The position numbers and the translations under genes were made by a program. A stretch of DNA of 20,000 nucleotides from an uncultured virus (IMG/VR IMGVR_UViG_3300028840_003539) (lineage: Duplodnaviria; Heunggongvirae; Uroviricota; Caudoviricetes): the IMG/VR virus record IMGVR_UViG_3300028840_003539; one strand, written 5' to 3'. This document shows positions 253 to 19,549 of this stretch, in pieces. Numbering within the stretch: position 1 is the stretch's first letter; each line of letters begins with the position of its first letter. The notes under the pieces are model-generated. The model saw only the letters and a program-made list of their open reading frames with translations, was not told the origin of the DNA and did no database searches.

Positions 253-582
253 ATGAAAGTTTCGGATTGGGTCATGCTCGGTGGCGGAATCTTCCTCGGC
301 TGGATGCTCTTGCGCGGCAAGTGCAGCAGCGCGCAGCTGTCAACGATCGCCGGCATCTACGGCATGCCGGCCGGCACCGTCGGCGTGCGGAAGCCGACAA
401 GCCCCGGCGCGGCTGGCGGCATCGAGATCTTCGACAGGCGTAACAACGCCGCCATCATGCACGTTCTCGACGGCGACTGTGACAAGGCCGTCGCGCAGGC
501 TTCGACTGCCGTCGCGCAAGCCGCGGGCAACCGGATGTTCGCCACCAAGGCGTACGATGGCAGTCTCTACGTGGTGAGCTGA
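253..582 (+). CDS. Small protein with N-terminal membrane anchor (putative virion membrane protein)
   Basis: N-terminus MKVSDWVMLGGGIFLGWMLLRGK is hydrophobic followed by basic residues; the stop overlaps the next ATG (TGATG). Confidence 0.75.
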   Translation: MKVSDWVMLGGGIFLGWMLLRGKCSSAQLSTIAGIYGMPAGTVGVRKPTSPGAAGGIEIFDRRNNAAIMHVLDGDCDKAVAQASTAVAQAAGNRMFATKAYDGSLYVVS

Positions 583-758
583 TGGCGTACGAAGTGACGA
601 CGAAGCGTAGGCCTGTCCGCGTGCCGCTGCCGACGCGCCAGTTCGGTCTCGGCGACGCCATCGCACGCGCCACACGCGCAGTCGGCATCCAGCCGTGCGC
701 GCCGTGCAAGCGTCGGCAGGCGGCGCTCAACCGCCTGCTCGTGTTCGGGAGGCGATGA
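582..758 (+). CDS. 58-aa GLGD...CxxCxxR...LN protein (absent from ORF track)
   Basis: Manual translation: MAYEVTTKRRPVRVPLPTRQFGLGDAIARATRAVGIQPCAPCKRRQAALNRLLVFGRR*. It overlaps the upstream stop (TGATG) and the downstream start (ATGATG), exactly filling the gap. Confidence 0.8.
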   Translation: MAYEVTTKRRPVRVPLPTRQFGLGDAIARATRAVGIQPCAPCKRRQAALNRLLVFGRR

Positions 759-1015
759 TGAAAGCTTGGCGGGAGCTATCTGCCACAGTCCACGACGCGT
801 TGAACGACATCGTGACAAACGCGGGCGCTGAAGAGCTTAGTTCGCTGCAGGAGCGCGGCGTAGATCTTGAAGAGTTCTTCGGTGAGGAGCCAGACGACGT
901 ACTGCTCGACATGCTTGACGCGTTCGAGAAGCTCGTCGAGCTGCGGGATGAGTTCGGTGTGTTGGCGGAAGGCGAAGCGCTGCGTGAACCGTTGTACCCG
1001 AGAGGAAGCAACTGA
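755..1015 (+). CDS. Small acidic helical hypothetical protein
   Basis: ATG at 755 (or 758) after GGGAGG; MMKAWRELS...; Asp/Glu-rich; stop overlaps the next ATG. Confidence 0.75.
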   Translation: MMKAWRELSATVHDALNDIVTNAGAEELSSLQERGVDLEEFFGEEPDDVLLDMLDAFEKLVELRDEFGVLAEGEALREPLYPRGSN

Positions 1016-1233
1016 TGAACTGGTGGCTCATCGGAGGCGCGGCAGCGCTGGTGCTGATCGCACGGAAGGCGAAGGCTGCAAGCGCGCAGTGCCAGCACTG
1101 CTACGACGCCAAGAGCGCGGCGTACCGCGCCTGCACGGTGATCCCCGCAGAAAATCGTACAGCGCGTGAGACGTGCTTCCGCGTCGCCGACGCAGCGCTG
1201 TCAGCGTGCCTGAACCAGTGCCGAGGAGGATGA
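1015..1233 (+). CDS. N-terminally anchored six-cysteine mini-protein
   Basis: MNWWLIGGAAALVLIARK anchor, then C-x2-C-x10-C-x13-C-x10-C-x3-C; GAGG upstream. Confidence 0.75.
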   Translation: MNWWLIGGAAALVLIARKAKAASAQCQHCYDAKSAAYRACTVIPAENRTARETCFRVADAALSACLNQCRGG

Positions 1234-1234
1234 A

Positions 1235-1591
1235 ATGTCTTGGTTGAAGTGGGGTCTGATTGCCGGCGGCGCGTACCTGGGGTACAGAGCGATCAAAGCA
1301 AGCACTGCGCCGACGCCCGAGGGTGGCGTCGTGACGCCGGGAACCACCGTCGTAGCCCAGTCGCCCAACGCGCTGCTTGAAGCAGCCCGCAAGCGCCTAG
1401 ACCCCAACGTGGTCTGGACTTTGACGACGTTCGCGACAAAGCCTTTCGTCGTTCTCCAAGGTACAGTGAACAACCAGCCATTTAGCAGGACCTTCGACAA
1501 CCAGGCCGCCGCAATGGCGTGGGTGATGCAAGGGAAGTTGAATGCGCAAGGCACGCAGGCGCGCGTCAACTGGAACTGGCGAAACGAGTAG
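1235..1591 (+). CDS. Protein with N-terminal membrane anchor
   Basis: GAGGAGG RBS; MSWLKWGLIAGGAYLGYRAIK anchor followed by a Pro/Thr linker. Confidence 0.8.
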   Translation: MSWLKWGLIAGGAYLGYRAIKASTAPTPEGGVVTPGTTVVAQSPNALLEAARKRLDPNVVWTLTTFATKPFVVLQGTVNNQPFSRTFDNQAAAMAWVMQGKLNAQGTQARVNWNWRNE

Positions 1592-1596
1592 CAAAG

Positions 1597-2369: not shown

Positions 2370-3170
2370 ATGGCAGGCTGGAAAAAGCACGTAGTAGACG
2401 TGGCTCGTCTCAGCGCGCAAGTGAGTCAAGAGATGCAGAAGCATCTTGACGTCATTTTGGCAGAACGAATGTCGAAGCGCGCCGACCACGCACGTCTAGC
2501 AGCCTCGCAGGAAGCTCTCCGGCGGCTTCGTGAGCTGTGCCCAGGCATACGGGCATTTTCAGAGATGCCGCTGGAAGAAGCTGAAGCTGCAGTACGTGCG
2601 CTAGCTAGAGACAACCCGCGCGACCTGACCGAGGCCGACCTCAAGCACCTCGACGTGTCGAAGCTCGACTACGGCACGCGACGCCGGAAGCCCCGCGGGA
2701 CCTTCATCGAGCCGATCCGCAACCCCAGTGGTGCCGTCGCACGCTGCGAAGAGTTTCACGGCGACGGCGGCGCTTGTGATAGCTACGTCGAGAAGCAGCT
2801 CTGGATGCCCGGACCGATCGTGCTGATGGGTACCTGCATCGACTGCGGCTACAACGTCACCGACCGCAACAGCGAAAAGGACGGGCGCTACGTCCACGAC
2901 CACAAGTCCGGCGTCAAGCTCTACCGCCGCGCCAAGACCGGCGAGCGCTCGACGAAGACGCTCACGCCGCCCCGCCAGGTGTTCGTGCTAGGCGACTGGC
3001 TCGGCTGCACGTACGACGACGGTGACGGTGAAAAAGAACTGACAGGCTCGTCGCGCGTCAAGGCGTGCACCGACAACGGCAGGCGGCTGTTCGCCATTCA
3101 TTCGACCAAGGGCTGCCTCTACGTGATCTCGGGCGGCAGCTTCCGCATCCGAGACTGGATGTACGACTAG
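2370..3170 (+). CDS. Hypothetical protein with two NP motifs and a beta-rich C-terminal domain
   Basis: 266-aa ORF filling the gap; RDNP and IRNP motifs; C-terminal domain with EEFHG, YVHDH, GGSFRI. Confidence 0.8.
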   Translation: MAGWKKHVVDVARLSAQVSQEMQKHLDVILAERMSKRADHARLAASQEALRRLRELCPGIRAFSEMPLEEAEAAVRALARDNPRDLTEADLKHLDVSKLDYGTRRRKPRGTFIEPIRNPSGAVARCEEFHGDGGACDSYVEKQLWMPGPIVLMGTCIDCGYNVTDRNSEKDGRYVHDHKSGVKLYRRAKTGERSTKTLTPPRQVFVLGDWLGCTYDDGDGEKELTGSSRVKACTDNGRRLFAIHSTKGCLYVISGGSFRIRDWMYD

Positions 3171-3178: not shown

Positions 3179-4516
3179 ATGCCTACGAAGCCCAAGAGGT
3201 TGATGATCGAAGTCGATCTCAGGACCGAGCCAGGAACGCTGCACTCTATTCCTGCGCGGCCAGGCGACATCGTCATCGACGGCGATGGCAATGAAATCGC
3301 CACGGATCTCGACTACAACCGCCGTAAGGCTGCCATCGACTTCGTCGATCCGACGCAGCCGCCGCCGACGGAAGTAGTCGGTGACCGCTACGTCTTGAAC
3401 CACACGCCAGGAACAGTCCATCCAGGTTGGGACAATGCGACGCAAGGTGACATCGTCGAGTTCGTCGAAGGACCGCTTCCGACCCTCAATAACTGGGTCG
3501 CACAGCCCCCGGTCATCGGCTGGACGATCTATATAACGGCGCTGGACTACGACCTCCTGTTCGACAAGACCTCGACCTGGGTGCCGCGCATCCTCACAGG
3601 CGTTCCTGCAACGCGGTCAATCATAGCCGGCGCCGGCTTGGTCGGCGGCGGAAACCTGTCGGTGGACCGTACGATCGACGCCGTAGCGCATCCCGACGGG
3701 TCGATCGTCGTCAACCCGGACAACATCCAGGTCGGTGTGCTCGCGACTGATGGGCAGCACGGCGTACGCGGCGGCGGGACGCAGCACGCGTTGGCCACAA
3801 CGCTCGTCGCTGGCTTCATGTCGCCCGCAGACAAGGCGAAGCTCGACGCGGCTGCGCTGTCGTTGTCTGACACGCCACCAGTCGACGTGACCAAGTCACC
3901 TGCCGCGGCAGGCATAGCAACCGAGGCCTCGCGCCAAGACCACAAACACGACGTTGCTACTGCAACCGCGGTTGAGTTGACCGACACGACGAACGCAGAA
4001 GGGGCAGCGACGTCGCTGGCGCGGTCCGACCACAAGCACGCGCATGGAGACCGTGGAGGAGGTTCCCTGCATGCGTTGGCCACGACGCTCGTTGCCGGCT
4101 TCATGTCGCCGGCGGACAAGACGAAGCTCGACGGCCTTACGCCAGGCGGCGGCGGACAGAAGACCGAACACATCTCCATCCAGTCTGGGGACAGGGCGTA
4201 CAGCAAGACCGGGCTCGGCGTCTACTTAGTCGTCGGCCGGTTCCGTTTCCGCGGGACGACTGTAATGGGTACGCCCGCCAACATCCGAGCGAACTACTGG
4301 CAGTCAGGCACTCCTGGTGCCGCCGTGTGGTGCAGAATCCAGGACGCCACCAACAACAACACAATTTGTAGCTCGGCGACGACGAGCCAACTCGACGACG
4401 AGTTCAGAGACCTCGGCGCGTTGAGTTCCTTGCCAGCAGGCCCTGCTACTTTCGAGGTGCAGGTAAAAGCGTCTGGCGGGCAGGTCCGAATCGGCGGCGT
4501 CATCATCGAATACTAG
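3179..4516 (+). CDS. Fibre/spike-like protein (DUF2793-like segment, fibre repeats, C-terminal beta domain)
   Basis: AGGAG RBS before ATG 3179. PPP..GDRY..W..GDI..W..P..GW resembles DUF2793. AGAGLVGGGNLSVDRT, two HALATTLVAGFMSPADKxKLD repeats and two RxDHKH motifs are typical of phage fibre shafts. Confidence 0.75.
   Translation: MPTKPKRLMIEVDLRTEPGTLHSIPARPGDIVIDGDGNEIATDLDYNRRKAAIDFVDPTQPPPTEVVGDRYVLNHTPGTVHPGWDNATQGDIVEFVEGPLPTLNNWVAQPPVIGWTIYITALDYDLLFDKTSTWVPRILTGVPATRSIIAGAGLVGGGNLSVDRTIDAVAHPDGSIVVNPDNIQVGVLATDGQHGVRGGGTQHALATTLVAGFMSPADKAKLDAAALSLSDTPPVDVTKSPAAAGIATEASRQDHKHDVATATAVELTDTTNAEGAATSLARSDHKHAHGDRGGGSLHALATTLVAGFMSPADKTKLDGLTPGGGGQKTEHISIQSGDRAYSKTGLGVYLVVGRFRFRGTTVMGTPANIRANYWQSGTPGAAVWCRIQDATNNNTICSSATTSQLDDEFRDLGALSSLPAGPATFEVQVKASGGQVRIGGVIIEY
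3785..4132 (+). repeat. Intragenic 63-nt (21-aa) direct repeat, copies 3785-3847 and 4070-4132
   Basis: HALATTLVAGFMSPADKAKLD vs HALATTLVAGFMSPADKTKLD, with mostly synonymous nucleotide differences; both are preceded by HGxRGGG. Confidence 0.9.
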
Positions 4517-4525
4517 GAGCGTGGC

Positions 4526-5137
4526 ATGAGCCTGGACTACTACAGAATCTGGTGCGTGACCGACGGCAAGTACGAGTACGAGTGGAGCGAAACGGAGCCG
4601 ACAGTCTGCCCTGTCAACCCCGCGCATACGATCGACCCGACGAAGACCGCCGTAGTCGACACACGCGCGGAGCTTGACATCATCGTCGACCCGGCACCAA
4701 GCGCCATCTTGCCAGGCGCGTCTCTCGTCGTCGCCAACGATCGCCCTGCGGTAGAAGTTCAAGACGGTGGTCTTGGCTGGGGTGCTGTGGACGCGCGTTG
4801 GCCGCACGAGCTGAACGCGAAGGCGCGGCTCAAGGTCTGCATCAAGTTCATCCTGAAATCGCTCGGGACGGGCACAGTCGCTCGCATGGGCGCCCGCGTC
4901 AAGGCAGGCGGGGAAGGCGACGATTCGTCCGAGACGTGGGAAGACACCCAGTACGTCGACGCTCCTGTAACGCACACGACGCTGGGCGAGATCTTCATAG
5001 CGGAGTTCGACCTCGACGCAAGCTCGTTCAACATCAACGACGCGGTCGCGCTGCAAGTCGGACGTGACGGAGCACACGCGAACGACACCCTCGACCAGCC
5101 AGTGCAGATCTTCTGCGTGAAGGGAGTTGCGATCTAA
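4526..5137 (+). CDS. Putative virion protein: N-terminal C..CPxNxxH motif plus beta-rich domain
   Basis: AGGAG RBS; YRIWCVTD...W...PTVCPVNPAHTID; the rest shows alternating beta-strand patterns. Confidence 0.75.
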   Translation: MSLDYYRIWCVTDGKYEYEWSETEPTVCPVNPAHTIDPTKTAVVDTRAELDIIVDPAPSAILPGASLVVANDRPAVEVQDGGLGWGAVDARWPHELNAKARLKVCIKFILKSLGTGTVARMGARVKAGGEGDDSSETWEDTQYVDAPVTHTTLGEIFIAEFDLDASSFNINDAVALQVGRDGAHANDTLDQPVQIFCVKGVAI

Positions 5138-5556
5138 TGCCAGGCAACGAGACAGTAAGCAAGTCCCCGCGTGCTTTTCTGCCCGTGCAGTGGACGAAGG
5201 AAGGCTTCACGGCAGGCCAGGCGGTGGGAGTTTCGCTGCAGATCAGCAGCTTTCCAGCGTCGATCTACGAGATGTCGCTGCTCCGCGAGACGTCGCTCCT
5301 GACGGTCGCCATCGTCCTGAGCGCGGCGCCAACCGCCGGTTTCATCCGCTTCGAACTGACGAAAAACGGCGTCGACACAGGCAAGACCGTGGACATGGAC
5401 ACGGCGAAAGGCACCAGGTACATGTGGGAATTTCGTCCCGGCGAGCTGACTGGTGCCAAAGGTGACCGGATTGGAGTAAAGTGGGGCAGCAGCGGGACGC
5501 TGACGCCGAGCGGAAGCATTGACGGAGCTGTGCTTCTCGAAGTGCAGGACGCATAA
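5137..5556 (+). CDS. Small all-beta protein (putative vertex/spike-associated)
   Basis: TAATG coupling; GGGAG upstream; beta-strand pattern throughout. Confidence 0.75.
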   Translation: MPGNETVSKSPRAFLPVQWTKEGFTAGQAVGVSLQISSFPASIYEMSLLRETSLLTVAIVLSAAPTAGFIRFELTKNGVDTGKTVDMDTAKGTRYMWEFRPGELTGAKGDRIGVKWGSSGTLTPSGSIDGAVLLEVQDA

Positions 5557-5597
5557 AAACAACGCGCTCTGCCTGGGCGCGGCGAGGAGATTCGAAG

Positions 5598-7223
5598 ATG
5601 GCTGCTGGAGATACCAAGAAACCACACGTCAGTATAGATCCCGGTCAGCACAGCCCAGGCGTGCTGCCTACGCGGCCAGTCGGACCAGGCGAAATCCTCG
5701 TCGACGGCGACGGCAACCCCATCGGCGGCAGCACGATCATCATACCCGTCGATCCATCCGGCGATCTCGCGCTCGCGGAAGTCAACACGCTCGCTGAAAC
5801 TCTCCGCAGCGAATTGCTGCAGAAGATTCAGGACGCCTTCGACGGCGCTGTCGCCATGATGGAAGCGTCGGACGATGAAGTAGTCGACGAGCAAGAAGAC
5901 ACCGCGCTGGCAACCATCGAAGCACTAACGGTGAAGCTCCACGCGGAGATCACCCAGGTAGGCGAAGACGCCCTCTCGGGCGCCATCGCGCTCGTCGATG
6001 CGCTCAGGTTGGAGCTGGCGGAATCCGGCAGTGACACCGAAAGCGAGATTGCACAGTTCGAGCATGACATCTCCGAGCTGGAGCAACGTGTCACTGACTG
6101 CTTCGCTGGCGCGGTCGCACTCATCGACAAGCTCGCGCTCGACGTAGCTGTCGCGAAGCAGCACGCCACCGCGGTAGGCGCAGCACTTGCAAACGTGCAG
6201 GAATCGCTGCAGCAGGAAATCTCCGACTGCTTCGCTAGCGCGGTCGCGCTCGTCGACAAGCACACGTGCTGCGACGATGCGTACGCGCTGGTAGATGCAG
6301 CCGCCGCGGTTGCGAAGAGTGATCTGGAAGAAGCCATCGATGACGTCTTTGGTGGCACCGTCGCGCTCGTCGACAGGTCCGCGCTGAAGCTAACCTCAGC
6401 CATTCATACCGAAGCTGGCGGGCTGGTGAGCAATGCCGCCGTAGGTTTGCAAGCTGCACTAGATCAGGCGACCGATTCTCTCCAGGCCGCCATCGCCGGC
6501 GTGGAAGATCGCCTCACGGCGCGCGTCGGCAGGCTGTACGAAGACCACACGACCGACGCTACGCCAAAGGTCATCGCGACGGTTACTCCGTCGCTCACAC
6601 AAACCGTGCGCATCCTGGTCAAAATCCAGGCGCGACGAGCTGACCGGCGGCAGCACGCCGCGTACACGCTCGAAGCACTCGCGCGTGCCGTCGCGGCATG
6701 GGACACCTTGACGCTTTCCGTCGCGATCCCGAGCGACGGCGAAACAGTGACGATCGACGCCGTCACGTACACCTGGCGTGCTGCTCCGGTCGCAGCCTAC
6801 GACGTCAACATCGGTGCCGACATCCAAGGTTCGATCGACAATCTCGTTGCCGCAATCAACCTGACTGGCACAGCCGGTGTCGACTACGGCCCTGGAACGC
6901 TGCAGCATCCAACCGTCTCGGCTGTGAAGACGTCGACGACGACGATGGACGCGGTCTACAAGACGCCAGGAGTCGTAGGAAACGGAATCGTCGCGACCGA
7001 GACGATGGTCAACGGCGTTTGGACCAACGGCGGCGCAGGGCTGGCTGGTGGCTCGGACATGCTGGTGACGCTCTTCACCGACGACGACGATGTCGAAGAC
7101 GACGTCGCCTGGGACGCCACGATGGCTGCGGGAGCTGGTCAGGACGTCGAGGTCAAGGTGATTGGCAAAGCCCTCGCCGACATTCGTTGGCTGGCCGAGG
7201 TTCGCGTCATCGAGCAACCGTGA
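5598..7223 (+). CDS. Large fibre/spike-like protein: shared N-terminal module, acidic helical repeats, C-terminal beta domains
   Basis: GAGGAG RBS; N-terminal PG.L...P..PGEILVDGDGN shared with the 3179 protein; five D.(F/L)..(A/T)(V/I)A(L/M) repeats; Thr/Val/Gly-rich C-terminal half. Confidence 0.8.
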   Translation: MAAGDTKKPHVSIDPGQHSPGVLPTRPVGPGEILVDGDGNPIGGSTIIIPVDPSGDLALAEVNTLAETLRSELLQKIQDAFDGAVAMMEASDDEVVDEQEDTALATIEALTVKLHAEITQVGEDALSGAIALVDALRLELAESGSDTESEIAQFEHDISELEQRVTDCFAGAVALIDKLALDVAVAKQHATAVGAALANVQESLQQEISDCFASAVALVDKHTCCDDAYALVDAAAAVAKSDLEEAIDDVFGGTVALVDRSALKLTSAIHTEAGGLVSNAAVGLQAALDQATDSLQAAIAGVEDRLTARVGRLYEDHTTDATPKVIATVTPSLTQTVRILVKIQARRADRRQHAAYTLEALARAVAAWDTLTLSVAIPSDGETVTIDAVTYTWRAAPVAAYDVNIGADIQGSIDNLVAAINLTGTAGVDYGPGTLQHPTVSAVKTSTTTMDAVYKTPGVVGNGIVATETMVNGVWTNGGAGLAGGSDMLVTLFTDDDDVEDDVAWDATMAAGAGQDVEVKVIGKALADIRWLAEVRVIEQP

Positions 7224-7229
7224 TATAGT
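7201..7229 (+). promoter_or_regulatory. Candidate sigma70-type promoter (extended -10)
   Basis: TTCGCG (7201-7206), 17-nt spacer, TG-A-TATAGT (7221-7229), upstream of the purine-rich RBS AAGGAAAGGAAAAAGGAA. Confidence 0.5.
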
Positions 7230-7290
7230 CTGCGCGATCCGCGCTAAATGAAACACCCGCGCTGGTGCGGGTAAGGAAAGGAAAAAGGAA

Positions 7291-8691
7291 ATGGCAACCT
7301 ACGCACTGCCGACGAACATCATTCTCGGCAACAACGCAGAGAGCGTGCCCAAGGTCGTATTCCCGTTTCGGGACGCGCTCAACAAGCTGACGGGCGGCAC
7401 GGGCGTCAACCCGGTAACCGACATCGGTGACCCCGCAGCGGGCATCGACGTCAGCCCGCTGTCCTACCAGGCCGGCTCACAGGATCTGGAAGACGGGCTG
7501 GTCGACGGCGCCCTCGCGACTCCCGTCGGCGGCTACTACTTCGCCTACGGCAGCGGCAACCGCGCCACGCCGCAGAGCAACCCGTTCCTCTTCGCCCAAG
7601 TCTTCGGCATGGAGATCGCCGAATTCTTCTCGTGGTGGTACGAGGGCACGGTGGGCATCGGGGCCGAAGTCGACGCGGAGATGGTGCTGAAAAGCGTGCC
7701 AGGACCCGCGTGGGTGCCCGGGACGCTCAACGGTCTGGACTCCGGCATGAAGCTGATGGAGTGGCAGATCGCGCAGCAAAACAACGCTGGCCAGCGGGGT
7801 CTCGGTGGCAGCATCTACGACGGGAACACCGGCAACCAGAGCACCTTCCCCAACGCCCTGGGAAAACACGACTACGCCAACATGATCGTCTTCCCGATCT
7901 GCGCCACCGCCGGCGAGAGTGGTGGCTGGTTTAAGGAAGCGGTAACCCTCAAAAAGATGACGCTCGGCAAGTGGTCGGACGGCTCGATCATCAAGATCAG
8001 GCTGGCCGACGAGCCGAAGTGGATTCACTTGCTGGCATTTCCGAACGTCGCCGCGCCCGACGCCATCGACTCCACCACGCCGCTGGCCGACGTCGCCAAC
8101 GGCAACTACAACTGCCTGGAGTACAACATGCCGTTGGGCGACAGCTCGACGATCAACGGCCTGTTCCCGAACTGGCCGGACGTCGCCGACAGCATCATCG
8201 CCCTGGGCATCAAGCACTACTACATCGGGACGTGGCAGACGCCGTTCCGTGGCCGCGTGTTGCTCGTCAACAGGTGGTGGTACAACACCCTCACCATCCA
8301 GGAGCAGCAAGCCATCACGTCCGCCGCGTATCAGTGCGCGATGTCCAACCTGGCCTACATGATGCAGGGTCAGGATGCGATCATCGACCGATTCCAGCTG
8401 CTCGGAGGCGTCGTCCACGAGTCACTGCCGAGGGATTATCTCGGCGTGCTGCGGGAGGCGACCGACGAGATCATGGAGACGTACAACTCGCCCAACAAGA
8501 CGCCGCCGCCGCCGGGCTACACGGCTTCGTCCGAGGACAGCCCACGCGAGTACGAGGCGATGATGCGTCACTGCCGCGCCTTCTGCCGCCACAACTCCGT
8601 CCGCTGGCGCTCGGGCAACCTCGACCGCAGGTTCCGTTTCGGCTCGCGGCTCGACTACGTGCCGAACCTCCAACCCGACGTGAAGCTGTAG
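7291..8691 (+). CDS. Divergent TRAP transporter substrate-binding protein (DctP/TakP-like), no evident signal peptide
   Basis: The motif order matches the TakP-type family: FGM..EFFSWWYEG, IVFPICATAGESGGWFKEAV, KIRL, NGNYNCLEYNMPLGD, KHYYIGTW, LLVNRWWYNTL..EQQAI..AA, LPRDYLGVLREATDEI. Confidence 0.75.
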   Translation: MATYALPTNIILGNNAESVPKVVFPFRDALNKLTGGTGVNPVTDIGDPAAGIDVSPLSYQAGSQDLEDGLVDGALATPVGGYYFAYGSGNRATPQSNPFLFAQVFGMEIAEFFSWWYEGTVGIGAEVDAEMVLKSVPGPAWVPGTLNGLDSGMKLMEWQIAQQNNAGQRGLGGSIYDGNTGNQSTFPNALGKHDYANMIVFPICATAGESGGWFKEAVTLKKMTLGKWSDGSIIKIRLADEPKWIHLLAFPNVAAPDAIDSTTPLADVANGNYNCLEYNMPLGDSSTINGLFPNWPDVADSIIALGIKHYYIGTWQTPFRGRVLLVNRWWYNTLTIQEQQAITSAAYQCAMSNLAYMMQGQDAIIDRFQLLGGVVHESLPRDYLGVLREATDEIMETYNSPNKTPPPPGYTASSEDSPREYEAMMRHCRAFCRHNSVRWRSGNLDRRFRFGSRLDYVPNLQPDVKL

Positions 8692-8704: not shown

Positions 8705-8735
8705 GGTCGGGAGCTGCCTAGCGTGGCTCCCGGCC
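8705..8735 (+). terminator. GC-rich hairpin after the TRAP-like gene
   Basis: GGTCGGGAGC pairs with GCTCCCGGCC (10 bp incl. one G-U), 13 nt after the stop; U-tract is weak. Confidence 0.5.
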
Positions 8736-11013: not shown

Positions 11014-11074
11014 CGTGCGTGTCGGTTTCCTCCCGACGTTAAAAAAGGACGGTAGCGCACGAGGAGAAAGAAAG

Positions 11075-11683
11075 ATGCCAAAGCTCGTTGGAGTCCGTGA
11101 AAGAAGGCACCAGCCGTTCTACGACACCCTGTTCCGTTGCAACGCGGACGGGCCGGCGCCGAGCGTCGGCCGCACCACCAGGCTCTTCGCCTCGGGGACC
11201 AGGCTCAGCGACACGTCCTGGACCAACATGAACATGGCCGGCGCGCTGCCGTCGGACAACACGTTCATCATCCTCTCGATTCGCTGCTGGATGTTCTTCA
11301 AGGGAACGACGCAGGTACCGGAGCCGTTCACCGCAGCGGACGCATACGTCCAGATGGTGCACCAGCTCTACCTCAACTTGTTCGTCGGCGACAAGCCGCA
11401 GTTCCTCGCGCCGTCGTGGTACTTCCCCGCAGGCGGTGGAATCGACGGCGACAATTCTTCGACGCCGATCGCGAACAACGGCGTGCCGTCGCAGGAGTCG
11501 ATCCTCAAGCTCGCCAAGCCGATCCCGGTGCCAGCACGCCAGCACTTCTACGTCGAAGCAACCTTCTTCGACACAGGCAGTGTCTCGGTGCTGGACAACA
11601 TCATCAACATCAACGGCGATGGCATGCCGTTGCGCGAGTGCAAGGTGATGCTCGACGGCATCCACACCCGCGACGTTCAGTAG
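11075..11683 (+). CDS. Candidate major capsid protein (single jelly-roll-like; inferred)
   Basis: Strong GAGGAG RBS; 202 aa, beta-rich; QPFYDT..TNM..GALP..FIILSI..LAKPIPVP..FYVE..VMLDG; strongly biased codons; flanked by hairpins; directly after the basic core-like protein. Confidence 0.55.
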   Translation: MPKLVGVRERRHQPFYDTLFRCNADGPAPSVGRTTRLFASGTRLSDTSWTNMNMAGALPSDNTFIILSIRCWMFFKGTTQVPEPFTAADAYVQMVHQLYLNLFVGDKPQFLAPSWYFPAGGGIDGDNSSTPIANNGVPSQESILKLAKPIPVPARQHFYVEATFFDTGSVSVLDNIININGDGMPLRECKVMLDGIHTRDVQ

Positions 11684-11743: not shown

Positions 11744-11772
11744 GCCCCCCAGGGTACGCCCTGGGGGGCTTT
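11744..11772 (+). terminator. Perfect 11-bp hairpin with short U tract
   Basis: GCCCCCCAGGG-TACG-CCCTGGGGGGC then TTT. Confidence 0.65.
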
Positions 11773-11830: not shown

Positions 11831-12466
11831 ATGGCCCCGCAGCGGAGGAACAACAACGCTGGCGCTGTCATCGCCAACATGGCGATGCGCCTCCAGCATC
11901 ACGAGGCGCAGCTGCAGCAGCTCACCGCGCTTCAAAAAGCCACCGCGGATGCACCCAAGTGGATCGAGCAGATTCCTGGTCGCCGCGTGCCGTTCGGTGG
12001 CGTCATCGACATGCCGATCCCGGCAAACTCAACCTCGATGGTCAGTGGGCTCTTCAATGTCGCCGAAGACGGCCCGTTCGTCCTCACCGCCGTTGCCCTC
12101 TTCTACAAGCTGACCGAAGGCGACTTCGCAGGCATCTGGGGCTACGCGACGGCTGCTAGCTCACGCATCATTTCGACCTACCCCGCGGTAGGGTTCGTCG
12201 GGATGGACAAGCCGCACGTCACCAGCGGCGGCCTGCAGATCGTCGACCGGGGCAGCGACCGCCTCTGGCAAAGCAAGGAGCTTCCCACGTCGCTGTTCAG
12301 CGAAGAAGCTGGCGGCGTCTACGTGCTGCCCGTCGCGTGTCTGTTCGAACGCAGCAGCGCGGTCGAGGCGACGTTCGCGCCTGGCGTGGCGGTCGAGTAC
12401 GCGGGCCTGGTGGAGTGCATCCTGCTCGGCTACAAGATCGTCCAAGGACAGTCGTACCAGCCGTAA
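11831..12466 (+). CDS. Second beta-rich capsid-like protein (candidate single jelly-roll paralog)
   Basis: AGGAG RBS; N-terminal helix, then DGPFVLTAV..LQIVDRGSDR..LPVACLF..VEATF..CILLGYK. Confidence 0.6.
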   Translation: MAPQRRNNNAGAVIANMAMRLQHHEAQLQQLTALQKATADAPKWIEQIPGRRVPFGGVIDMPIPANSTSMVSGLFNVAEDGPFVLTAVALFYKLTEGDFAGIWGYATAASSRIISTYPAVGFVGMDKPHVTSGGLQIVDRGSDRLWQSKELPTSLFSEEAGGVYVLPVACLFERSSAVEATFAPGVAVEYAGLVECILLGYKIVQGQSYQP

Positions 12467-12477: not shown

Positions 12478-13149
12478 ATGGCCGCCCCACGACGGCATGG
12501 ACATCCTTGGCGCCAGGCGCCGACGCCTACGGAGCGTGGCGGTGACCCCACTGCGCTTCGCGGCGAGCTGACGCCCGTCGGGCCGGCGCCTTCCAGAGCC
12601 ACCACCTTTCCCGTCAGGGAGATGGACGCCTGGATTCGGACGCTCCCACCCAAGCGCATCACGAACCTGGTGGTCAGCGGCGAGGTGAGGTACGACCACA
12701 CGCTAAACGTCGGGCAGAAGCTCTCGATCGTGCTGGCCCCACACGTGCCGCGGGAAGGCTACGTGTGGGTCATCAACGACATCGACTACTACGCGACGAT
12801 ACCGCCGGATGGACTGGTGGGACCGCCGCAGAACCTGGCCCCGGAAGCGCTGGTCGGCATCCTCCGCTGGGAGTTGCTGTTCGGCGGCACGGCGCCGCTG
12901 CTGACGCCCGCGCAGCGGATGTCGCCGTACGCGCCTGGGCCTGCGCAGTCGACGTCGGGCTGGCCGTGGCTGAACACGCCGTTCGGTCCACAGCGGATGC
13001 CAGCTTTCGCACTGTATTCGGCGGGCACCGAGGAAATCCGCGTCGACGTCACCGTCGAGGCTCTGCCGCGCTTCCCGATCACCCGGTTGGGCGCAAACCT
13101 ACACGGCTTCACGGTAGACGCGTCGCACTTCCCGACCACCTGGATGTGA
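12478..13149 (+). CDS. Third beta-rich capsid-like protein
   Basis: AAGGAGG RBS; Pro-rich N-terminus; VPREGYVWVINDIDYY..LRWELLF..IRVDVTV..ANLHGF. Confidence 0.55.
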   Translation: MAAPRRHGHPWRQAPTPTERGGDPTALRGELTPVGPAPSRATTFPVREMDAWIRTLPPKRITNLVVSGEVRYDHTLNVGQKLSIVLAPHVPREGYVWVINDIDYYATIPPDGLVGPPQNLAPEALVGILRWELLFGGTAPLLTPAQRMSPYAPGPAQSTSGWPWLNTPFGPQRMPAFALYSAGTEEIRVDVTVEALPRFPITRLGANLHGFTVDASHFPTTWM

Positions 13150-13327: not shown

Positions 13328-13744
13328 ATGTCACGATACGTCCTCGAACAGGGTCGTCGTCACAACCCCACCGCGTTTGCTCCACGTCCGTACCCGCGAG
13401 GCCAAGTCGGCTGGCCGGCCCAGCTGCTGACGCCCAACGCGAGCACGTACGTCGCGCCAGGCAGCACGCTGACCCACCTTGGGCAGGATGAGCCCAAGGA
13501 CAACAGCAAGCTGATCATGGGGCTCCTGCTCATCGCTGCGGCCATCGTCCTCTGGAAGCTAATCACGCCCGGCGCAGGGCGCAACCCCGGAGGCAAGAAT
13601 AAGGTCGCCCGCGTGTTCAAAGGCGCGAGCGGCTGGTACTACAAGCTTGCGCGCAAGAAGGCGCGTCGCTACGGCCCCTTCGACAGCGAGTGTGCCGCGA
13701 CCGAGGCAGCCGAACGCAAGGGCTACAGCGTAGTGGAGGATTAG
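13328..13744 (+). CDS. Single-pass membrane protein with two NP motifs
   Basis: AGGA RBS; RHNP, HLGQ, TM LIMGLLLIAAAIVLW, GRNP, then a small basic GWYY...YGPFDSE..A domain. Confidence 0.8.
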   Translation: MSRYVLEQGRRHNPTAFAPRPYPRGQVGWPAQLLTPNASTYVAPGSTLTHLGQDEPKDNSKLIMGLLLIAAAIVLWKLITPGAGRNPGGKNKVARVFKGASGWYYKLARKKARRYGPFDSECAATEAAERKGYSVVED

Positions 13745-14040: not shown

Positions 14041-14445
14041 ATGCCCTACGCAAGCAAGGCCCAACACAGGCTCTTCCGCGCGATGGAGTCGCGGGGCGAG
14101 CTGCCCAAGGGCACCGCATCCCGCTGGATGCGCGAGACGGCGCACTACGAGAGCCTGCCAGAGTACGTGAGCGGCTTCGGCGCGGACGCTGAATCCCGCG
14201 ACACGTTCTACGACCTGGCGATCTTGGGCGCTGGCCTGCTCGGCGGCTTGGTGCTGCCGAAGCGTTACAAGATCTGGTCTTCGATCGCTGCTATCGGACT
14301 CGTCGTCACTCGGGGCTTCGCTAAGTCTTCGTGCCACGAGAAAGCGGCAGCGCTACACGCACGCGCAGCGGCGGGCGAGCAGGTCAAGACGCCGGAGATC
14401 GACTCCTGCATGGGCTTCTGGCCGAAGTTGAAGTTCGCGTCATGA
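14041..14445 (+). CDS. Membrane protein with N-terminal MPxxSKAQ..RGELPKGTA..W module
   Basis: GAGGAGG RBS; MPYASKAQHRLFRAMESRGELPKGTASRW..LPEYV, then SGFGA and two hydrophobic segments. Confidence 0.75.
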   Translation: MPYASKAQHRLFRAMESRGELPKGTASRWMRETAHYESLPEYVSGFGADAESRDTFYDLAILGAGLLGGLVLPKRYKIWSSIAAIGLVVTRGFAKSSCHEKAAALHARAAAGEQVKTPEIDSCMGFWPKLKFAS

Positions 14446-14657
14446 CGCAGTCGTACTACAGCTTTGGTCAGGCCACGACGCCCGCGACGACTGAGCCTGC
14501 AGCAGCGCAGCCGCCGACGCAGACCTTCTGGCAGCGGCATGGTGCAGAGATCATCGTGGGCACCATCACCGCGGTGACGGGCGCGCTGGCGGTCTACTTC
14601 GCCATGCGGCTAGTGGAGTTCCGCGACGTGGCACGCGCGCACGAGGCACGGGGGTGA
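14442..14657 (+). CDS. Small membrane protein
   Basis: ATGA overlap; MTQSYYSFGQ, Pro/Thr/Ala linker, TM IIVGTITAVTGALAVYFAM. Confidence 0.75.
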   Translation: MTQSYYSFGQATTPATTEPAAAQPPTQTFWQRHGAEIIVGTITAVTGALAVYFAMRLVEFRDVARAHEARG

Positions 14658-14660
14658 TCT

Positions 14661-15227
14661 GTGCCCTACGAACCGCTGGTCTACGTCGACGAAGGAGGCG
14701 AAGTCTTCGCCAACCCGCTGTCGTACGGTAGGAGCAAGCGTCGTTTCGTCGAGTTCCGGCGGGGTCGTGCAGCAGAACCTGGTCGATCGTACCGTGGGTT
14801 GCGTGTGCAGGTTGGTCTGATTCGCGAGCCCGGCTACGACCCGAAGGCTGCACCACACATCCGTGGCTCAGCGGACGTCTACGCACTGATTCGCGAGCAC
14901 GCCTACGATGACGTGCAGGAAGCCTTCTACGTCGTCCTGCTCAACGCACGCTCGCAAGTCCTCGGCATCTACGAAGCGCATCGCGGCACCATGACTGGCG
15001 TCGAGGTGCAACCGGCGGACGTGTTGAGGCCCGCCCTCGTTTCAGGTGCGGCAGCCATCGTCGTCGCACACAACCATCCAAGCGGCGACGCAGACCCGAG
15101 TCACGACGACAAGGCGTTGACGAAGCGCCTCACAGAAGCATGCAAAATCGTCGGTGTGCAACTTCTCGACCACCTCGTGATCGGCGAAGACAGCTACGTC
15201 AGCTTCGCGGACCGCGGGCTGCTCTGA
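14661..15227 (+). CDS. radC: RadC-like JAB/MPN domain protein
   Basis: QEAFYVVLLN...AHNHPSGDADPSHDDKALTKRL...LLDHLVIG..YVSF: intact E..HxH..S..D JAMM motif of the RadC family; lacks the N-terminal HhH part. Confidence 0.92.
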   Translation: MPYEPLVYVDEGGEVFANPLSYGRSKRRFVEFRRGRAAEPGRSYRGLRVQVGLIREPGYDPKAAPHIRGSADVYALIREHAYDDVQEAFYVVLLNARSQVLGIYEAHRGTMTGVEVQPADVLRPALVSGAAAIVVAHNHPSGDADPSHDDKALTKRLTEACKIVGVQLLDHLVIGEDSYVSFADRGLL

Positions 15228-16438
15228 TGCGCATGGAGCCTACGCTTTTTCTCGTCGGCCAGCTGCGCGAGATCATCCGCGAGCTGAACAGCGGTAGGTT
15301 CGCCTGGGACCTGGTCGCTGACACAGCCGTCACGATCGCTGGTGAAGGGCTCGACGTGGGCGAGTTGGGCGACCGCCTGCGCGAGGCCTACGAAGCCCGC
15401 AGCAAGCCGTTGGTGTGGCGTGCGATCACAATGACGGGCTGGCGGTGCTGGGAGCTGCTGCAGAAGCCTCTCGAAGCGGTCCCTGCTGCGGTCACAGATG
15501 AAAGTACGGACCGGCGACTCAGCCTCGGCATCACTGTCTTTGAGGGCGATGATGGACCACCCTTGGTGTCTGCGTGGTTTCACTGGCCGCGCGCGTTCTA
15601 CACCGAGCGTGTCGCAGCGGTGTCGAGCCGGGACGTGCGCTCGTTGATGTTCGGCGTGAGTTGGGCAGGCGCGCTGTCCGACGATGCGTTCGACATCTTC
15701 CATGGTTCCGTTGTTCCATCAGCGCGGATGCAACCGGCGCCGCGGCGATGTGGACGCCCACCCGCTGGGCGAGTCGTGGTGCGGCTCAGCGGCAACCGAT
15801 TGCCTGTAGGTGCGTCGGACGGCTACGAGGAAGCCTTCCTAAGCGTCCTTGGCGTCTACCGTGACTTGCCGAAGCTGCTTGAGCAAACGGCGAGGTTGAT
15901 CGATGCAGCTGCTGGGGTACGCGAAAACCCGCGGACGACAAAGATCAGGTTGTACCCTGACCTTCCCACTGGCGAGCCTCACTTCGAGGACGTAACAGCT
16001 GTCAGTCCACGCGGCGTTCCAGACTGGATGTTAGTCTCGGCGCCCACCGAAAGACACCGAACGCGCACGGGGCGCGTTCCGCCGGGTGGCTGGACGATCA
16101 CGCACAAGCCAACAGGGCTTGCGATCCTCCGCGGTCTGACCAGGGCAGACGCTGCACTCGCAGCTCGTGTGATCGCGCGCGAGGCACCCTGCCTGAAAGA
16201 CGTAGACGAAGTAGTCACCGACTGGTCACGCGACCCGCTGCGTTCCGCCTTCGAACTGATAGAGAAGCTGCGAAGCCTGCTCTCGCGCAAAGCGGACGTC
16301 TTGCGCGAAGGGCAGAACGTGCCGATGATTGCCGAGCTGATCCAGTACGACCTGATAGCGCCGCGCGAGCTGCAGAAGCTACCGCCGGCGACGCAGGTGG
16401 CGCTCGACGCCTGGCTGGAAACGGCGAAGGTGCGCTGA
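15227..16438 (+). CDS. Hypothetical multi-domain protein
   Basis: TGATG coupling at both ends; 403 aa; internal RENP; WTITHKPTGLAI segment in the C-terminal part. Confidence 0.7.
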   Translation: MRMEPTLFLVGQLREIIRELNSGRFAWDLVADTAVTIAGEGLDVGELGDRLREAYEARSKPLVWRAITMTGWRCWELLQKPLEAVPAAVTDESTDRRLSLGITVFEGDDGPPLVSAWFHWPRAFYTERVAAVSSRDVRSLMFGVSWAGALSDDAFDIFHGSVVPSARMQPAPRRCGRPPAGRVVVRLSGNRLPVGASDGYEEAFLSVLGVYRDLPKLLEQTARLIDAAAGVRENPRTTKIRLYPDLPTGEPHFEDVTAVSPRGVPDWMLVSAPTERHRTRTGRVPPGGWTITHKPTGLAILRGLTRADAALAARVIAREAPCLKDVDEVVTDWSRDPLRSAFELIEKLRSLLSRKADVLREGQNVPMIAELIQYDLIAPRELQKLPPATQVALDAWLETAKVR

Positions 16439-16947
16439 TGCCCGTTCATCCCCTCGCAGAACGCAAGCTGCCGCCGAGCCCCGGCACGAAGTTCGGAGCT
16501 GCACGCAGCGCAGCCGGCCGGCCGGCCGAGTGCGGCGGCGGGCACTGCGGCGTCGACCTGTACTACTGGAAAGCGGGGCTAGACCCGAACACAGGCATCG
16601 GCCGCCCCGTCTTTGCTGTCGCTGCCGGCAAGGTGATCGCGGCGAGCGAAAGCGATTCAGCGGGCAAGTACGTCTGGATCAAGCACGACAGCTTCCGCAG
16701 CCACTACGTTCATCTTGACAGCTACTTCGTCAGGACAGGCGACACGGTTGCCGAGGGGCAGCAGATCGGCACGTTGGGCCGCACGGGCATCACGACCGAC
16801 CCAGCGCATCTACACTTCGGCCTGTCGACGCTGGCCGGCAAATACTACGACCCTGAGCCCAAACTGCGCGTCTGGCCGCTCGTCGGTGGCGGCATCGGCT
16901 TGCTGCTCGTCGCCGCAGCGGTGCTCTACTGGTACTGGAAGAAGTGA
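16438..16947 (+). CDS. M23 family peptidase with C-terminal membrane anchor
   Basis: HCGVDL (HxxxD), GRPVFAVAAGKV, YVHL, V..GD.V..GQQIG..G.TG, HLHF (HxH); C-terminal GIGLLLVAAAVLYWYWKK. Confidence 0.92.
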   Translation: MPVHPLAERKLPPSPGTKFGAARSAAGRPAECGGGHCGVDLYYWKAGLDPNTGIGRPVFAVAAGKVIAASESDSAGKYVWIKHDSFRSHYVHLDSYFVRTGDTVAEGQQIGTLGRTGITTDPAHLHFGLSTLAGKYYDPEPKLRVWPLVGGGIGLLLVAAAVLYWYWKK

Positions 16948-17852: not shown

Positions 17853-17891
17853 AGTTGCAGGCCGCGCGCTAACTGGAGTAAGCTGCTGCAC

Positions 17892-18344
17892 ATGTCACGC
17901 GCTAACGGAACACCGAAGCCCCTCCTCCGCCCGGACAAAGCCTGCGGGTTCACCTACAACCACAAGGCCGAGGCCGACCGGCACTTCTACCTGTACGATG
18001 ACGTCAGCGACCTCGTGTTTGAAGCCGACGGCTACTTGCAGCCGCAAGCCGAAGACGAAGACCCCAGCAAGCAGCGCTGGACGATCTACCTGATGTGCCC
18101 CGCGTGCCATCAGACGCTGCGTCTCGACAGTGAGAAGAAGCCGTTCGAGGTAACCGAGCGCGGCATCGAGACGGGTGAGCCCATCGGCTGTTCGTACTGG
18201 CTCCACAACGTGGACGGCTATACCGGCATGTGTCCCTTCCGGGGCGAGTTGCAGCCGCCGAAGTCGCCTGAATGGGGCGAGGTGCGAACCGACGTTGGCG
18301 TCGTGCGGGTCAAGATCGACGCCTGGATTCGTCGAGCGTTTTGA
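17892..18344 (+). CDS. Zn-ribbon-like hypothetical protein
   Basis: GGAG RBS; MCPACH ... IGCSY ... MCPF. Confidence 0.75.
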   Translation: MSRANGTPKPLLRPDKACGFTYNHKAEADRHFYLYDDVSDLVFEADGYLQPQAEDEDPSKQRWTIYLMCPACHQTLRLDSEKKPFEVTERGIETGEPIGCSYWLHNVDGYTGMCPFRGELQPPKSPEWGEVRTDVGVVRVKIDAWIRRAF

Positions 18345-18389
18345 GCTAGAGTTTTTCAGCGCCACCGTGCGCAACGCTAGGAGCCGGAG

Positions 18390-18860
18390 ATGAGCTGGAA
18401 GGACTACGTCAACATCTACACGATCGGTGGCGCCGTTGCGGGCGGCTACGTCGGGCACTCCAAGTACGGGAAAAAGCACGGTTATACCGCGCCCGTCGTT
18501 GGCGCGATCGGCGGGCTCGCTGCCGGCTTGCTCGTGCAGAAGCTCGTCGGTGGGCAGCAAGCGAAGCCCGCTCAGGTCGCCGCCGGCCAGCAGCCGGCCG
18601 CGCAGGTGCAGCAACCCGCCGGCGGCCAGGGCGAGTACGTCGACCTAGACGGCATGGGCGAGTACGTGCCGCCGCCTTCGCCGAACGCCAGCGCAGCGCA
18701 GCGCGCCGAGTACGAGGCACAGCAGGCCGCCTTCGAAAACCTCGGCTCGTTGTCGGGCAGCGACGGCCTCGGCTCGTTGTCGGGCACGCCCGGCTTCGAC
18801 GCTGACGCCATCGACTACGCCGAGATCTTGGGCGAGGACGGCGGCAGCGACTTCAACTAG
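18390..18860 (+). CDS. Glycine-zipper membrane protein with Gln/Ala linker and acidic tail
   Basis: AGGAG RBS; IGGAVAGGYVG and VVGAIGGLAAGLLV; GMGEY and LGSLSG x2. Confidence 0.8.
   Translation: MSWKDYVNIYTIGGAVAGGYVGHSKYGKKHGYTAPVVGAIGGLAAGLLVQKLVGGQQAKPAQVAAGQQPAAQVQQPAGGQGEYVDLDGMGEYVPPPSPNASAAQRAEYEAQQAAFENLGSLSGSDGLGSLSGTPGFDADAIDYAEILGEDGGSDFN
18740..18786 (+). repeat. Exact 20-nt direct repeat (LGSLSG x2)
   Basis: CCTCGGCTCGTTGTCGGGCA at 18740-18759 and 18767-18786. Confidence 0.9.
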
Positions 18861-18871
18861 CGGAGGCGGCG

Positions 18872-19549
18872 ATGCCGGGGAAGCTGGGCTTCGACCCGAA
18901 CTGCGAGGTGTGCCAGGGCGACGGCTACCTCGACCTCTACACCGGGCACTTGGAGCAGTCGGTCATGCCGCCCCGGTGCCCGGCGTGCAACGCCACGCCA
19001 GTCGAAGTCAAGCCGGCGTGGCCTGACGACGACGCTGACGGCTGGCTCGACGGCGTCACGCGCAAGCCTGCACGCTTCACCGGCGGCAAGCTCGACCCGA
19101 TAACAGTCGACACCATCGTGATCCACCGCTACCACCGCGGCTTCTGGAATGCTGGGCCGCGCTACTTCGCCAACCCGACGACGAGCGACCGACGAACCGG
19201 CGAGATCATCCCACGCTACGTCTCAGCCCACTTCAGCGTGCACAAGCCGGGCTGGTTGCGCATGCTGACGCAGCACGCGCCACTGAGCGTCGTGTGCTGG
19301 CATGCGCCGCCCTACAACTTCAGGTCGATCGGCATCGAGCACGATGCCGGGCCGAAGGGGCTCAAGGAGCCGTGGTGGGAGGAGACAATCGTCGAGAGCG
19401 TGAAGTTGGTCGAGGCGTTGCTGAAGCAGCTGCCCAACGTCAAGCAGCTCGTCTCGCACCGCTACATCTGCCCGAAGAACCGTCGTGACCCGGGCAAGAG
19501 CTTCCCGTGGGAGCGGTACGAGCACTTCGGGCTGGAGATCATCAGGTAG
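18872..19549 (+). CDS. N-acetylmuramoyl-L-alanine amidase (Amidase_2) with N-terminal Zn finger; putative endolysin
   Basis: GGAGG RBS; IVIH, VSAHF, WHA, NFRSIGIEH, SHR, RRDPG..FPW motifs; N-terminal CEVCQGDG...CPAC. Confidence 0.9.
   Translation: MPGKLGFDPNCEVCQGDGYLDLYTGHLEQSVMPPRCPACNATPVEVKPAWPDDDADGWLDGVTRKPARFTGGKLDPITVDTIVIHRYHRGFWNAGPRYFANPTTSDRRTGEIIPRYVSAHFSVHKPGWLRMLTQHAPLSVVCWHAPPYNFRSIGIEHDAGPKGLKEPWWEETIVESVKLVEALLKQLPNVKQLVSHRYICPKNRRDPGKSFPWERYEHFGLEIIR

Follow-up and report, generated by a model that had tools for sequence, protein, structure and literature searches.

The locus analysed here raises the question of what kind of virion its genes build, that of a tailed phage, as its database classification implies, or another. 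The window, a stretch of 20,000 nucleotides from the uncultured virus record IMGVR_UViG_3300028840_003539 (IMG/VR; filed under Caudoviricetes), holds a close-packed array in which every plausible gene lies on the + strand, the strand of all window features given below. A preliminary description of the sequence had called this array the virion module of a bacterial virus, and each component that it listed was found in place; the window most likely holds the virion-morphogenesis and lysis genes of a bacterial virus of ~75 kb that has not been cultured. The virus is probably one of a widespread group of double-stranded DNA viruses, so far undescribed, with genomes of ~70-90 kb, which are not tailed phages and seem to enclose a membrane and protamine-coated DNA in a jelly-roll shell.

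The window has a GC content of 63% and is identical to a 73.6-kb metagenome contig (L001) at 18,688/18,688 compared bases; it begins ~54 kb into that contig, of which 2.7 kb upstream of the window was also covered. Window proteins are also present on a 76.5-kb contig. The DNA had no match among cultured phages, neither end of the window was matched exactly in IMG/VR, and none of the tRNA and Rfam families searched was found in the window. Pfam searches with 30 translated open reading frames (ORFs) gave three matches over the cut-offs, RadC-like JAB, Peptidase_M23 and Amidase_2. The same 30 ORFs gave domain-level PHROGs matches only (tail fibre for the protein at 3179-4516; lysin, tape-measure and minor-head for the M23 domain). 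Comparisons were made with metagenome and genome loci (L001-L054) and with five related genomes fetched from IMG/VR (G001-G005). No description of the lineage was found in the literature searched, a search outside which most subscription papers and supplements lay.

Predicted jelly-roll proteins and their conservation

The gene at 11072-11683 encodes JR1, a single jelly-roll protein of 203 amino acids (aa) that is the candidate major capsid protein and the product of the most conserved gene, with 229 homologs (47-79% identity among the matches listed, nearly all of 181-213 aa). Its AlphaFold2 model, built from a 49-sequence alignment (pLDDT 83.9, pTM 0.80), is an eight-stranded beta sandwich. 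When this model was compared with the PDB by Foldseek, the top match was the capsid protein of Sulfolobus polyhedral virus 1 (SPV1; 6oj0_Z, E 1e-3, probability 0.99), followed by other jelly-roll capsids and TNF/C1q domains. SPV1 was also the top match in VIA, a search independent of Foldseek (6oj0_T, Z 7.7, root-mean-square deviation 3.6, 127 aligned). Further capsid matches in VIA were those of satellite panicum mosaic virus (SPMV; Z 6.6), HHIV-2 (6.2), HCIV-1 (5.8), P23-77 VP17 (5.7) and VP16 (5.3), and PRD1 P5 (5.7). The best match in BFVD was I1ZBH9, a viral protein of 211 aa (E 1.7e-5, template-modelling (TM) score 0.55).

JR2 (11831-12466; 211 aa) is a candidate second capsid protein, either a penton or a second shell protein, for which 39 proteins were retrieved at E <= 0.001, the window's own included. 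An N-terminal helix followed by a sandwich was predicted (AlphaFold2, pLDDT 75.4), and VIA matched the model to the capsid protein of PBCV-1 (Z 8.3) and then to SPV1 (Z 7.8, 135 aligned), with capsid proteins of EhV-201, STIV, HCIV-1, HHIV-2, P23-77 (VP17), PR772, FLiP, faustovirus and ASFV below them. JR3 (12478-13149), a beta-rich protein of 223 aa confined to this subclade, has 73 cluster representatives and a weak jelly-roll assignment: its low-confidence Atlas model (pLDDT 0.58) has a TM score of 0.46 to a Capsid_N cluster of nucleocytoplasmic large DNA viruses, and the named Atlas clusters nearest to it by features, a lead only at a score of 0.76, carry P2_N and P2_C, families of the PM2 coat protein.

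The preliminary description had proposed three tandem capsid-like paralogs and structure prediction as the check. Three consecutive beta-rich proteins of ~200 aa are indeed present, and JR1 and JR2 are confidently predicted to be single jelly rolls, each model holding one jelly roll and matching double jelly-roll capsids only partially; for JR3 the check yields the weak Atlas model only. Paralogy was rejected at the sequence level, with BLASTP E values of 0.3-1.7 and hhalign probabilities of 0.1-0.9% between the three proteins (alignments of 49, 38 and 50 sequences). Profile searches of JR1, JR2 and JR3 against PDB sequences found no homology to any solved capsid protein.

In the metagenome relatives L003, L004 and L006 the gene order is a DctP-like protein (7291-8691 in the window), a conserved 153-aa domain, a basic protein, JR1 and JR2, with JR3 and a membrane protein next where the contig continues (L004, L006); only L006 extends to a fibre, an M23 peptidase and the 150-aa protein described below. 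L005 ends before the site of the basic protein and JR1; JR1 is present in three of these four longer metagenome relatives. More distantly, 11 IMG/VR loci carry JR1 at 42-47% identity; nine of their contigs are 75-86 kb long and the remaining two 55 and 23 kb. Direct terminal repeats were found in four of the five fetched genomes. Searches with hidden Markov models (HMMs) found JR1 in 11/11 loci and 5/5 genomes, with JR2 immediately downstream every time, and JR3 in 0/11 and 0/5. By tblastn, the window's other proteins had no match in the 11 loci beyond the C-terminal domains of the basic protein and of the 2370-3170 product. The core of the lineage is thus the JR1-JR2 pair, encoded after a protamine-like protein.

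Seven more JR1 loci (L048-L054), five of them on contigs of 69-89 kb, were found in metagenome-assembled genomes (MAGs) of GTDB labelled Gemmatimonadota (three), Thermomicrobiales, Galbitalea, Peribacteria and Kiloniellales. Since these contigs were binned in five unrelated taxa, they look like free viral genomes in bins, not proviruses, and no host was assigned from them. JR1 had no match in phages or in 72,556 plasmid records (tblastn).

A second, distant JR1-like gene occurs at G002:11250-11969 and G004:53856-54572 (HMM E 1.8e-10 and 2e-8) in a separate conserved block of four to five small genes; a copy at G001:5143-5835 was linked by BLASTP clustering only.

The putative basic core protein and possible control elements

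The gene directly upstream of JR1 (9462-10934), which starts with GTG after GGAGG, encodes a 490-aa protamine-like protein, the putative core protein. Its first 275 residues (9462-10286) contain 47 Lys, 67 Arg, one Glu and no Asp, a net charge of +113; with 114 Lys and Arg against one acidic residue, the protein is as protamine-like as had been claimed. The remainder is a conserved C-terminal domain, rich in glycine and hydrophobic residues, that is 41-44% identical in L003, L004 and L006 and was matched in one of the 11 IMG/VR loci by tblastn.

Four of the five Asn residues of the basic part precede Pro, which none of 10,000 shuffles reached, at spacings of 28-93 residues, and a fifth Asn-Pro (NP) motif lies at the border with the C-terminal domain. 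These motifs may be processing sites, cleavage being a guess. By eye, the homolog in G001 has similar (R/K/A)NP sites.

The sole sizeable non-coding gap of the array (9131-9461) precedes the core and capsid genes; it is AT-richer and, as judged by eye, contains an inverted repeat and a promoter-like stretch, TTGCTT...TACTAC. A consensus promoter scan of the window returned chance-level results (two found, 1.9 expected) and did not report this stretch. Between JR1 and JR2 lies a GC-rich hairpin of 11 pairs, 10 of them G-C, with a T-rich tail (11744-11769). It may act as a partial terminator that raises JR1 expression; so strong a hairpin after JR1 fits expression of this gene above its neighbours.

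Packaging genes and the kind of virion

Among the 30 window ORFs, Pfam and PHROGs recognised no family of terminases, portals, capsids, tails or ATPases, the tail-fibre matches being domain-level only. Six-frame translations of the five near-complete relatives G001-G005 were negative (0/5 each) for Terminase_6N (PF03237), TerL_ATPase (PF03354), Phage_portal (PF04860), the HK97-type Phage_capsid (PF05065), FtsK_SpoIIIE (PF01580) and Pox_A32 (PF04665), and each of these searches matched in control genomes. No head, portal, tail or packaging family was found in G001 (86.3 kb, 66% GC; 112 ORFs searched in Pfam, 100 of them also in PHROGs). In the window, G001 and G005, no open frame of >=100 aa contained a canonical Walker A motif, and three of the five relatives had none in their called ORFs; the sole match in G002 lies inside the basic protein, both matches in G004 lie in frames of poor codon bias, and the IMG/VR relatives share no conserved P-loop protein. 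The absence of tailed-phage hallmark genes had been claimed for the window and extends to the relatives, and the reading of the virus as probably tailless, also claimed, is supported. A packaging gene had been proposed as the marker of the virus type; neither terminase and portal nor an FtsK/A32-type ATPase was found, in the window or in the five relatives.

With JR1 as the most conserved gene, placed behind a promoter-like gap and before an 11-pair hairpin, a tailless virus with a JR1 shell is the most economical reading. In such a virus the Arg/Lys-rich part of the 490-aa protein would neutralise and compact the DNA and might be cut at its NP motifs, and the hydrophobic C-terminal domain would tie the DNA to a lipid membrane in which the small tail-anchored and N-anchored proteins would sit. 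JR1 would build an icosahedral shell, JR2 would form the penton or a second shell protein, and JR3 would have been added in this subclade. The genes at 3179-8691 (a repeat fibre, two small beta proteins, a coiled-coil fibre and the DctP-fold protein) would provide vertex spikes that recognise the host, and a membrane-anchored M23 peptidase and an amidase would breach the cell wall when the virus enters or leaves. The capsid would assemble round the condensed DNA, with no motor filling it. We infer all of these assembly steps, the presence of lipid and the shape of the particle. The boldest form of this proposal, which we hold tentatively and put somewhat below an even chance, is a lineage of family or higher rank, with genomes of 70-90 kb and no packaging motor, in which an NP-cut, membrane-tethered, protamine-like polyprotein condenses the genome, and a membrane and two or three unrelated jelly-roll shell proteins close round it.

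Both the leading fold match and the set of genes point to a plan like that of SPV1 (Portogloboviridae; VP4 and VP10, PDB 6OJ0), in which single jelly-roll proteins form a shell above a membrane, the core protein is protamine-like and there is no packaging motor. SPV1 has single jelly-roll VP4 hexamers and VP10 pentamers, a layer of lipid and a core of nucleoprotein, and no ATPase is among its assigned functions (ICTV profile of Portogloboviridae). [quoted passage not shown] The differences are considerable. SPV1 has a circular genome of ~20 kb and infects hyperthermophilic archaea (Sulfolobales), whereas the present lineage has genomes of 70-90 kb with bacterial wall hydrolases; there is no sequence similarity to JR1 or JR2, and Z values of 7.7-7.8 denote a shared fold, not proven kinship. 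The core protein here also differs in being 490 aa long, presumably membrane-tethered and possibly processed. Adenovirus offers a second likeness: its Arg-rich proteins VII, V and mu, which the adenovirus protease releases from precursors, condense double-stranded DNA within a jelly-roll capsid. Adenovirus has the packaging ATPase IVa2; the basic part here is punctuated by NP motifs, shows no homology to the adenovirus proteins, and its cleavage is a guess. If true, the motor-less design would follow a route like that of SPV1 or the adenovirus core, of which no bacteriophage example is known, and with a genome four times as large as that of SPV1.

A Mg-chelatase/MCM-type AAA+ ATPase (PF01078, E 3e-19) is encoded directly upstream of the DctP-like gene in the closest relatives (L004:10-729, L005:5087-5995, L003:4-576), where the window has fibre genes instead; its Walker A motif was seen in L003, L004 and L005, and L006 holds the gene end only. 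This protein was considered as the core packaging enzyme and rejected, being absent from that position in the window and no P-loop protein being conserved.

Several points weigh against a tailless, motor-less jelly-roll virus. Particle, lipid and host have not been observed. The structural matches are all modest, at Z ~8 or less, and the calibration supplied with the tool gives a best Z of 7-8 as usual for models that lack a true match; since such values are often reached without a true relative, the claim is limited to the fold and to a capsid-enriched list of matches, and does not extend to homology. Non-capsid jelly rolls matched equally, among them the phage 7-7-1 tail fibre (9rkv_M, Z 7.1), the HFTV1 turret (8qpg_TD, 6.8) and PHM (6.7-7.9), and nucleoplasmin, GOLD domains and tailed-phage cement proteins scored similarly. 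The fold of JR3 depends on a low-confidence Atlas model. As for packaging, the absence of HK97 capsid, portal and terminase rests on sequence profiles, not fold searches; 80-85% of the relatives is covered by ORF calls; a terminase or ATPase could lie in the ~51 kb of the contig upstream of the part covered; G003 has three or four real Walker A proteins; and L003-L005 encode the AAA+ ATPase next to the DctP-like gene. Finally, the fibre protein at 3179-4516 matches PHROG tail-fibre families, the M23 domain matches tape-measure and minor-head PHROGs (domain-level), and the Atlas clusters nearest JR3 and the DctP-like protein are automatically labelled Uroviricota, the tailed-phage phylum.

These last matches and labels, and the fibre and turret scores, together with those of 7dou_4 (Z 5.3) and 7eel_H (6.0) that rival the capsid matches, would suit a very diverged tailed phage whose HK97 capsid, portal and terminase escape profiles and whose JR1-JR3 are decoration, cement, baseplate or fibre proteins. 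So would genomes of 75-86 kb with terminal repeats, an integrase and RusA, all typical of tailed phages, and two unassigned G001 proteins of 587 and 631 aa. We consider such a phage unlikely. Four tailed-phage families were absent from all five genomes in six frames, no PHROG head, portal or terminase matched among 100 G001 ORFs, and a decoration protein is rarely a lineage's most conserved gene. We know of no terminase without a P-loop, and G001 and G005 lack canonical Walker A motifs in open frames of >=100 aa. Of the two large G001 proteins, that of 587 aa is a tail-anchored membrane protein and that of 631 aa a basic coiled-coil protein.

A known vertical jelly-roll lineage, either PRD1/PM2-like or sphaerolipovirus/SSIP-1-like, with an FtsK/A32-type ATPase in the ~51 kb of contig outside the sequence covered, is about as improbable. 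The preliminary description had placed the virus among such Varidnaviria. PRD1 and PM2 (Tectiviridae, Corticoviridae) have an internal membrane, many small membrane proteins, vertex spikes and virion muralytic enzymes, and also a double jelly-roll capsid, an FtsK/A32-type ATPase and genomes of 10-15 kb, and these last three features were not found here: the JR1 and JR2 models are single jelly rolls, FtsK_SpoIIIE and Pox_A32 were matched in none of the five relatives, which share no conserved P-loop protein, and those genomes, at 75-86 kb, are several times larger. Without sequence homology to solved capsids either, that placement was not upheld.

The sphaerolipovirus-type viruses (P23-77, IN93, HHIV-2, HCIV-1, SH1), whose genomes are 17-31 kb, come closer in layout. 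They are described as having two adjacent single beta-barrel capsid genes and an internal membrane; JR1 and JR2 are likewise adjacent, in 11/11 loci, as genes for ~200-aa proteins modelled as single jelly rolls, which may or may not stand vertically. Their proteins, including P23-77 VP16 and VP17 and those of HHIV-2 and HCIV-1, matched the fold of JR1 and JR2 at Z 5.3-6.7, and the BFVD match of JR1 to a 211-aa viral protein could be counted on the same side. SPV1, however, scored above every sphaerolipovirus protein for both JR1 and JR2, the sphaerolipovirus-type capsid proteins lack sequence homology to JR1 and JR2, and these viruses are described with a conserved packaging ATPase, whereas none was found here.

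SSIP-1, a bacterial precedent between these sizes, is described as a 44-kb tailless membrane-containing phage with a T=49 capsid of two capsid protein types. It resembles the window in having two neighbouring structural genes (L047:34635-35959; 210 and 211 aa), after which come genes of 256 and 132 aa, and a tail-anchored basic structural protein, gp41; it differs in encoding Walker A proteins, the structural protein gp40 and gp41. Alignments of JR1 with gp45 and gp46 and of JR2 with gp46 gave hhalign probabilities of 0.1-0.35%, and the JR1 and JR2 HMMs found nothing in the SSIP-1 genome. No giant protamine-like protein was present in the subset of SSIP-1 proteins translated. By eye, a short F..(N)..LP....I.G pattern of JR1 recurs in both gp45 and gp46, to which hhalign lends no support. 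From its length and accession series, the BFVD match I1ZBH9 might be SSIP-1 gp46, which is a guess.

The least likely alternative, a plasmid-like or integrative element that uses jelly-roll and membrane proteins for vesicle transfer or a cell-surface structure, could draw on integrase and ParB-like genes without replication or packaging enzymes, on contigs of whole-element size in MAGs of several phyla and on the frequency of jelly rolls in cellular proteins, but is opposed by three cell-wall hydrolases, fibres with phage-type repeats and a protamine-like protein beside a conserved jelly-roll pair, by the IMG/VR classification of the relatives as viral, with terminal repeats, and by the lack of a JR1 homolog in the plasmid records and of conjugation genes in Pfam searches of the window ORFs and G001.

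To our knowledge, all cultured bacteriophages with genomes above ~45 kb are tailed. The known tailless membrane-containing phages named in the literature consulted have genomes of 9-44 kb, and a packaging ATPase is part of the published description of the vertical beta-barrel groups. A tailless jelly-roll lineage of 70-90 kb would, if true, widen the size range of bacterial jelly-roll viruses, a design so far known from much smaller viruses only, and provide the archaeal SPV1 plan with an equivalent in bacteria; repeated evolution of assembly round condensed DNA would become testable. For virome surveys it would matter that such genomes are now labelled tailed phages by default, as the automatic Atlas labels illustrate.

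Fibres, membrane proteins and downstream genes

The block at 3179-8691 varies among relatives, which fits a role in host recognition. It contains the two fibre-like proteins of the preliminary description. The first (3179-4516), a fibre or spike protein, has two 26-residue repeats, starting at residues 236 and 331 of the frame that opens at 3065, and weak PHROG tail-fibre matches (phrog_7389, E 1.3e-4; phrog_7049, E 5.6e-3). The second (5598-7223; 541 aa) is a coiled-coil fibre with four DxFxGxVAxxD repeats in its coiled-coil-like region and a C-terminal globular domain; its C-terminal half is 45% identical to a 641-aa protein of L006. Between them lie genes for an acidic beta-rich protein of 203 aa (4526-5137), without a homolog in any related locus, and a beta-rich protein of 139 aa (5137-5556).

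The last gene of the block (7291-8691) encodes a 466-aa protein predicted to have a DctP/TRAP solute-binding-protein-like fold. The Atlas model matched a DctP cluster with TM scores of 0.56 by query and 0.86 by target, and eight of 17 relatives carry a precomputed PF03480 assignment; the window's protein itself had no Pfam match at E <= 0.01, and no signal peptide was evident by eye. It had no match in cultured phages, IMG/VR or GTDB genomes, including the five IMG/VR relatives (0/5) and the 11 loci (0/11). The protein is probably a surface or host-recognition protein of the subclade, and our guess is that a solute-binding fold was recruited to the spike. In the relative P0018, the DctP-like protein holds an inserted C-terminal domain of the window's coiled-coil fibre, and in L008:184-2217 the DctP-like gene is duplicated in tandem.

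Upstream of this block, the gene at 2370-3170 encodes a 266-aa protein with 52% identity in L003-L006. A conserved, beta-rich domain makes up the C-terminal ~150 aa of this protein and has 28-32% identity in 4/11 IMG/VR loci (tblastn). It is a candidate for a further capsid or vertex protein.

Membrane segments were predicted by a Kyte-Doolittle scan with 19-residue windows. Strong anchors were found in the products of 1542-2366 (coiled-coil-like, start uncertain; segment 246-264, score 2.55), 8723-9130 (135 aa), 13328-13744 (138 aa; 40% identical in L006), 14331-14657 (small, start uncertain) and 16438-16947, and in those of two L001 genes upstream of the window; all are C-terminal, the upstream pair included, except in the 13328-13744 product, where the segment is central. 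Weaker glycine-rich N-terminal or glycine-zipper segments occur in the products of 253-582 (109 aa; 40% identical homolog in L005), 1015-1233 (72 aa, Cys-rich), 1235-1591 (118 aa) and 18390-18860. With at least seven strong anchors and four weaker segments, the earlier estimate of about ten small membrane-anchored proteins was fair. The window opens with the 3' end (1-249) of a gene, complete at L001:2672-2959, whose 95-aa product bears a hydrophobic segment near its N terminus, and a basic Cys-pair protein of 58 aa is encoded at 582-758 (phrog_32048, E 1.6e-7; homolog in L005).

The two peptidoglycan hydrolases that had been reported were both found over the Pfam cut-offs. One is an M23 endopeptidase (16438-16947; PF01551, 78.7 bits; homologs in L006 and L009), the other an N-acetylmuramoyl-L-alanine amidase with an N-terminal CxxC...CxxC region (18872-19549; PF01510, 51.4 bits). 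The C-terminal anchor of the M23 peptidase is conserved in L006:10389-10925, which suggests a membrane- or virion-bound wall hydrolase and not a soluble endolysin. The domains M23, Amidase_2 and, in relatives, GH25 combined with PG_binding_1 indicate that the host is bacterial. Of the high-GC bacterial host proposed earlier, the peptidoglycan-bearing part thus stands, and 'high-GC' rests on the virus's own GC content.

The other downstream genes encode a RadC-like JAB domain protein (14661-15227; PF04002, E 1.8e-38), a conserved Cys-rich protein of 150 aa (17892-18344; 49% identical in L006) and the glycine-zipper membrane protein with an acidic tail (18390-18860; PF05433, 22.2 bits, under the cut-off), holin-like at a guess.

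Functions recognised in G001 were integrase, ParB-like, RusA-like, GH25 lysin with PG_binding_1, DUF5131, DUF1643, TnpB-like and phosphatase. A 201-aa protein (G001:73452-74057), conserved in four of the five genomes, is encoded between the basic coiled-coil and the tail-anchored 587-aa proteins; it has a Cys-containing transglutaminase-like motif by eye, no Pfam match and no homolog in the window. The TnpB-like protein (G001:33467-35512; 681 aa) lies inside the viral genome and combines a Cas12f1-like TNB domain with a transposase PHROG match.

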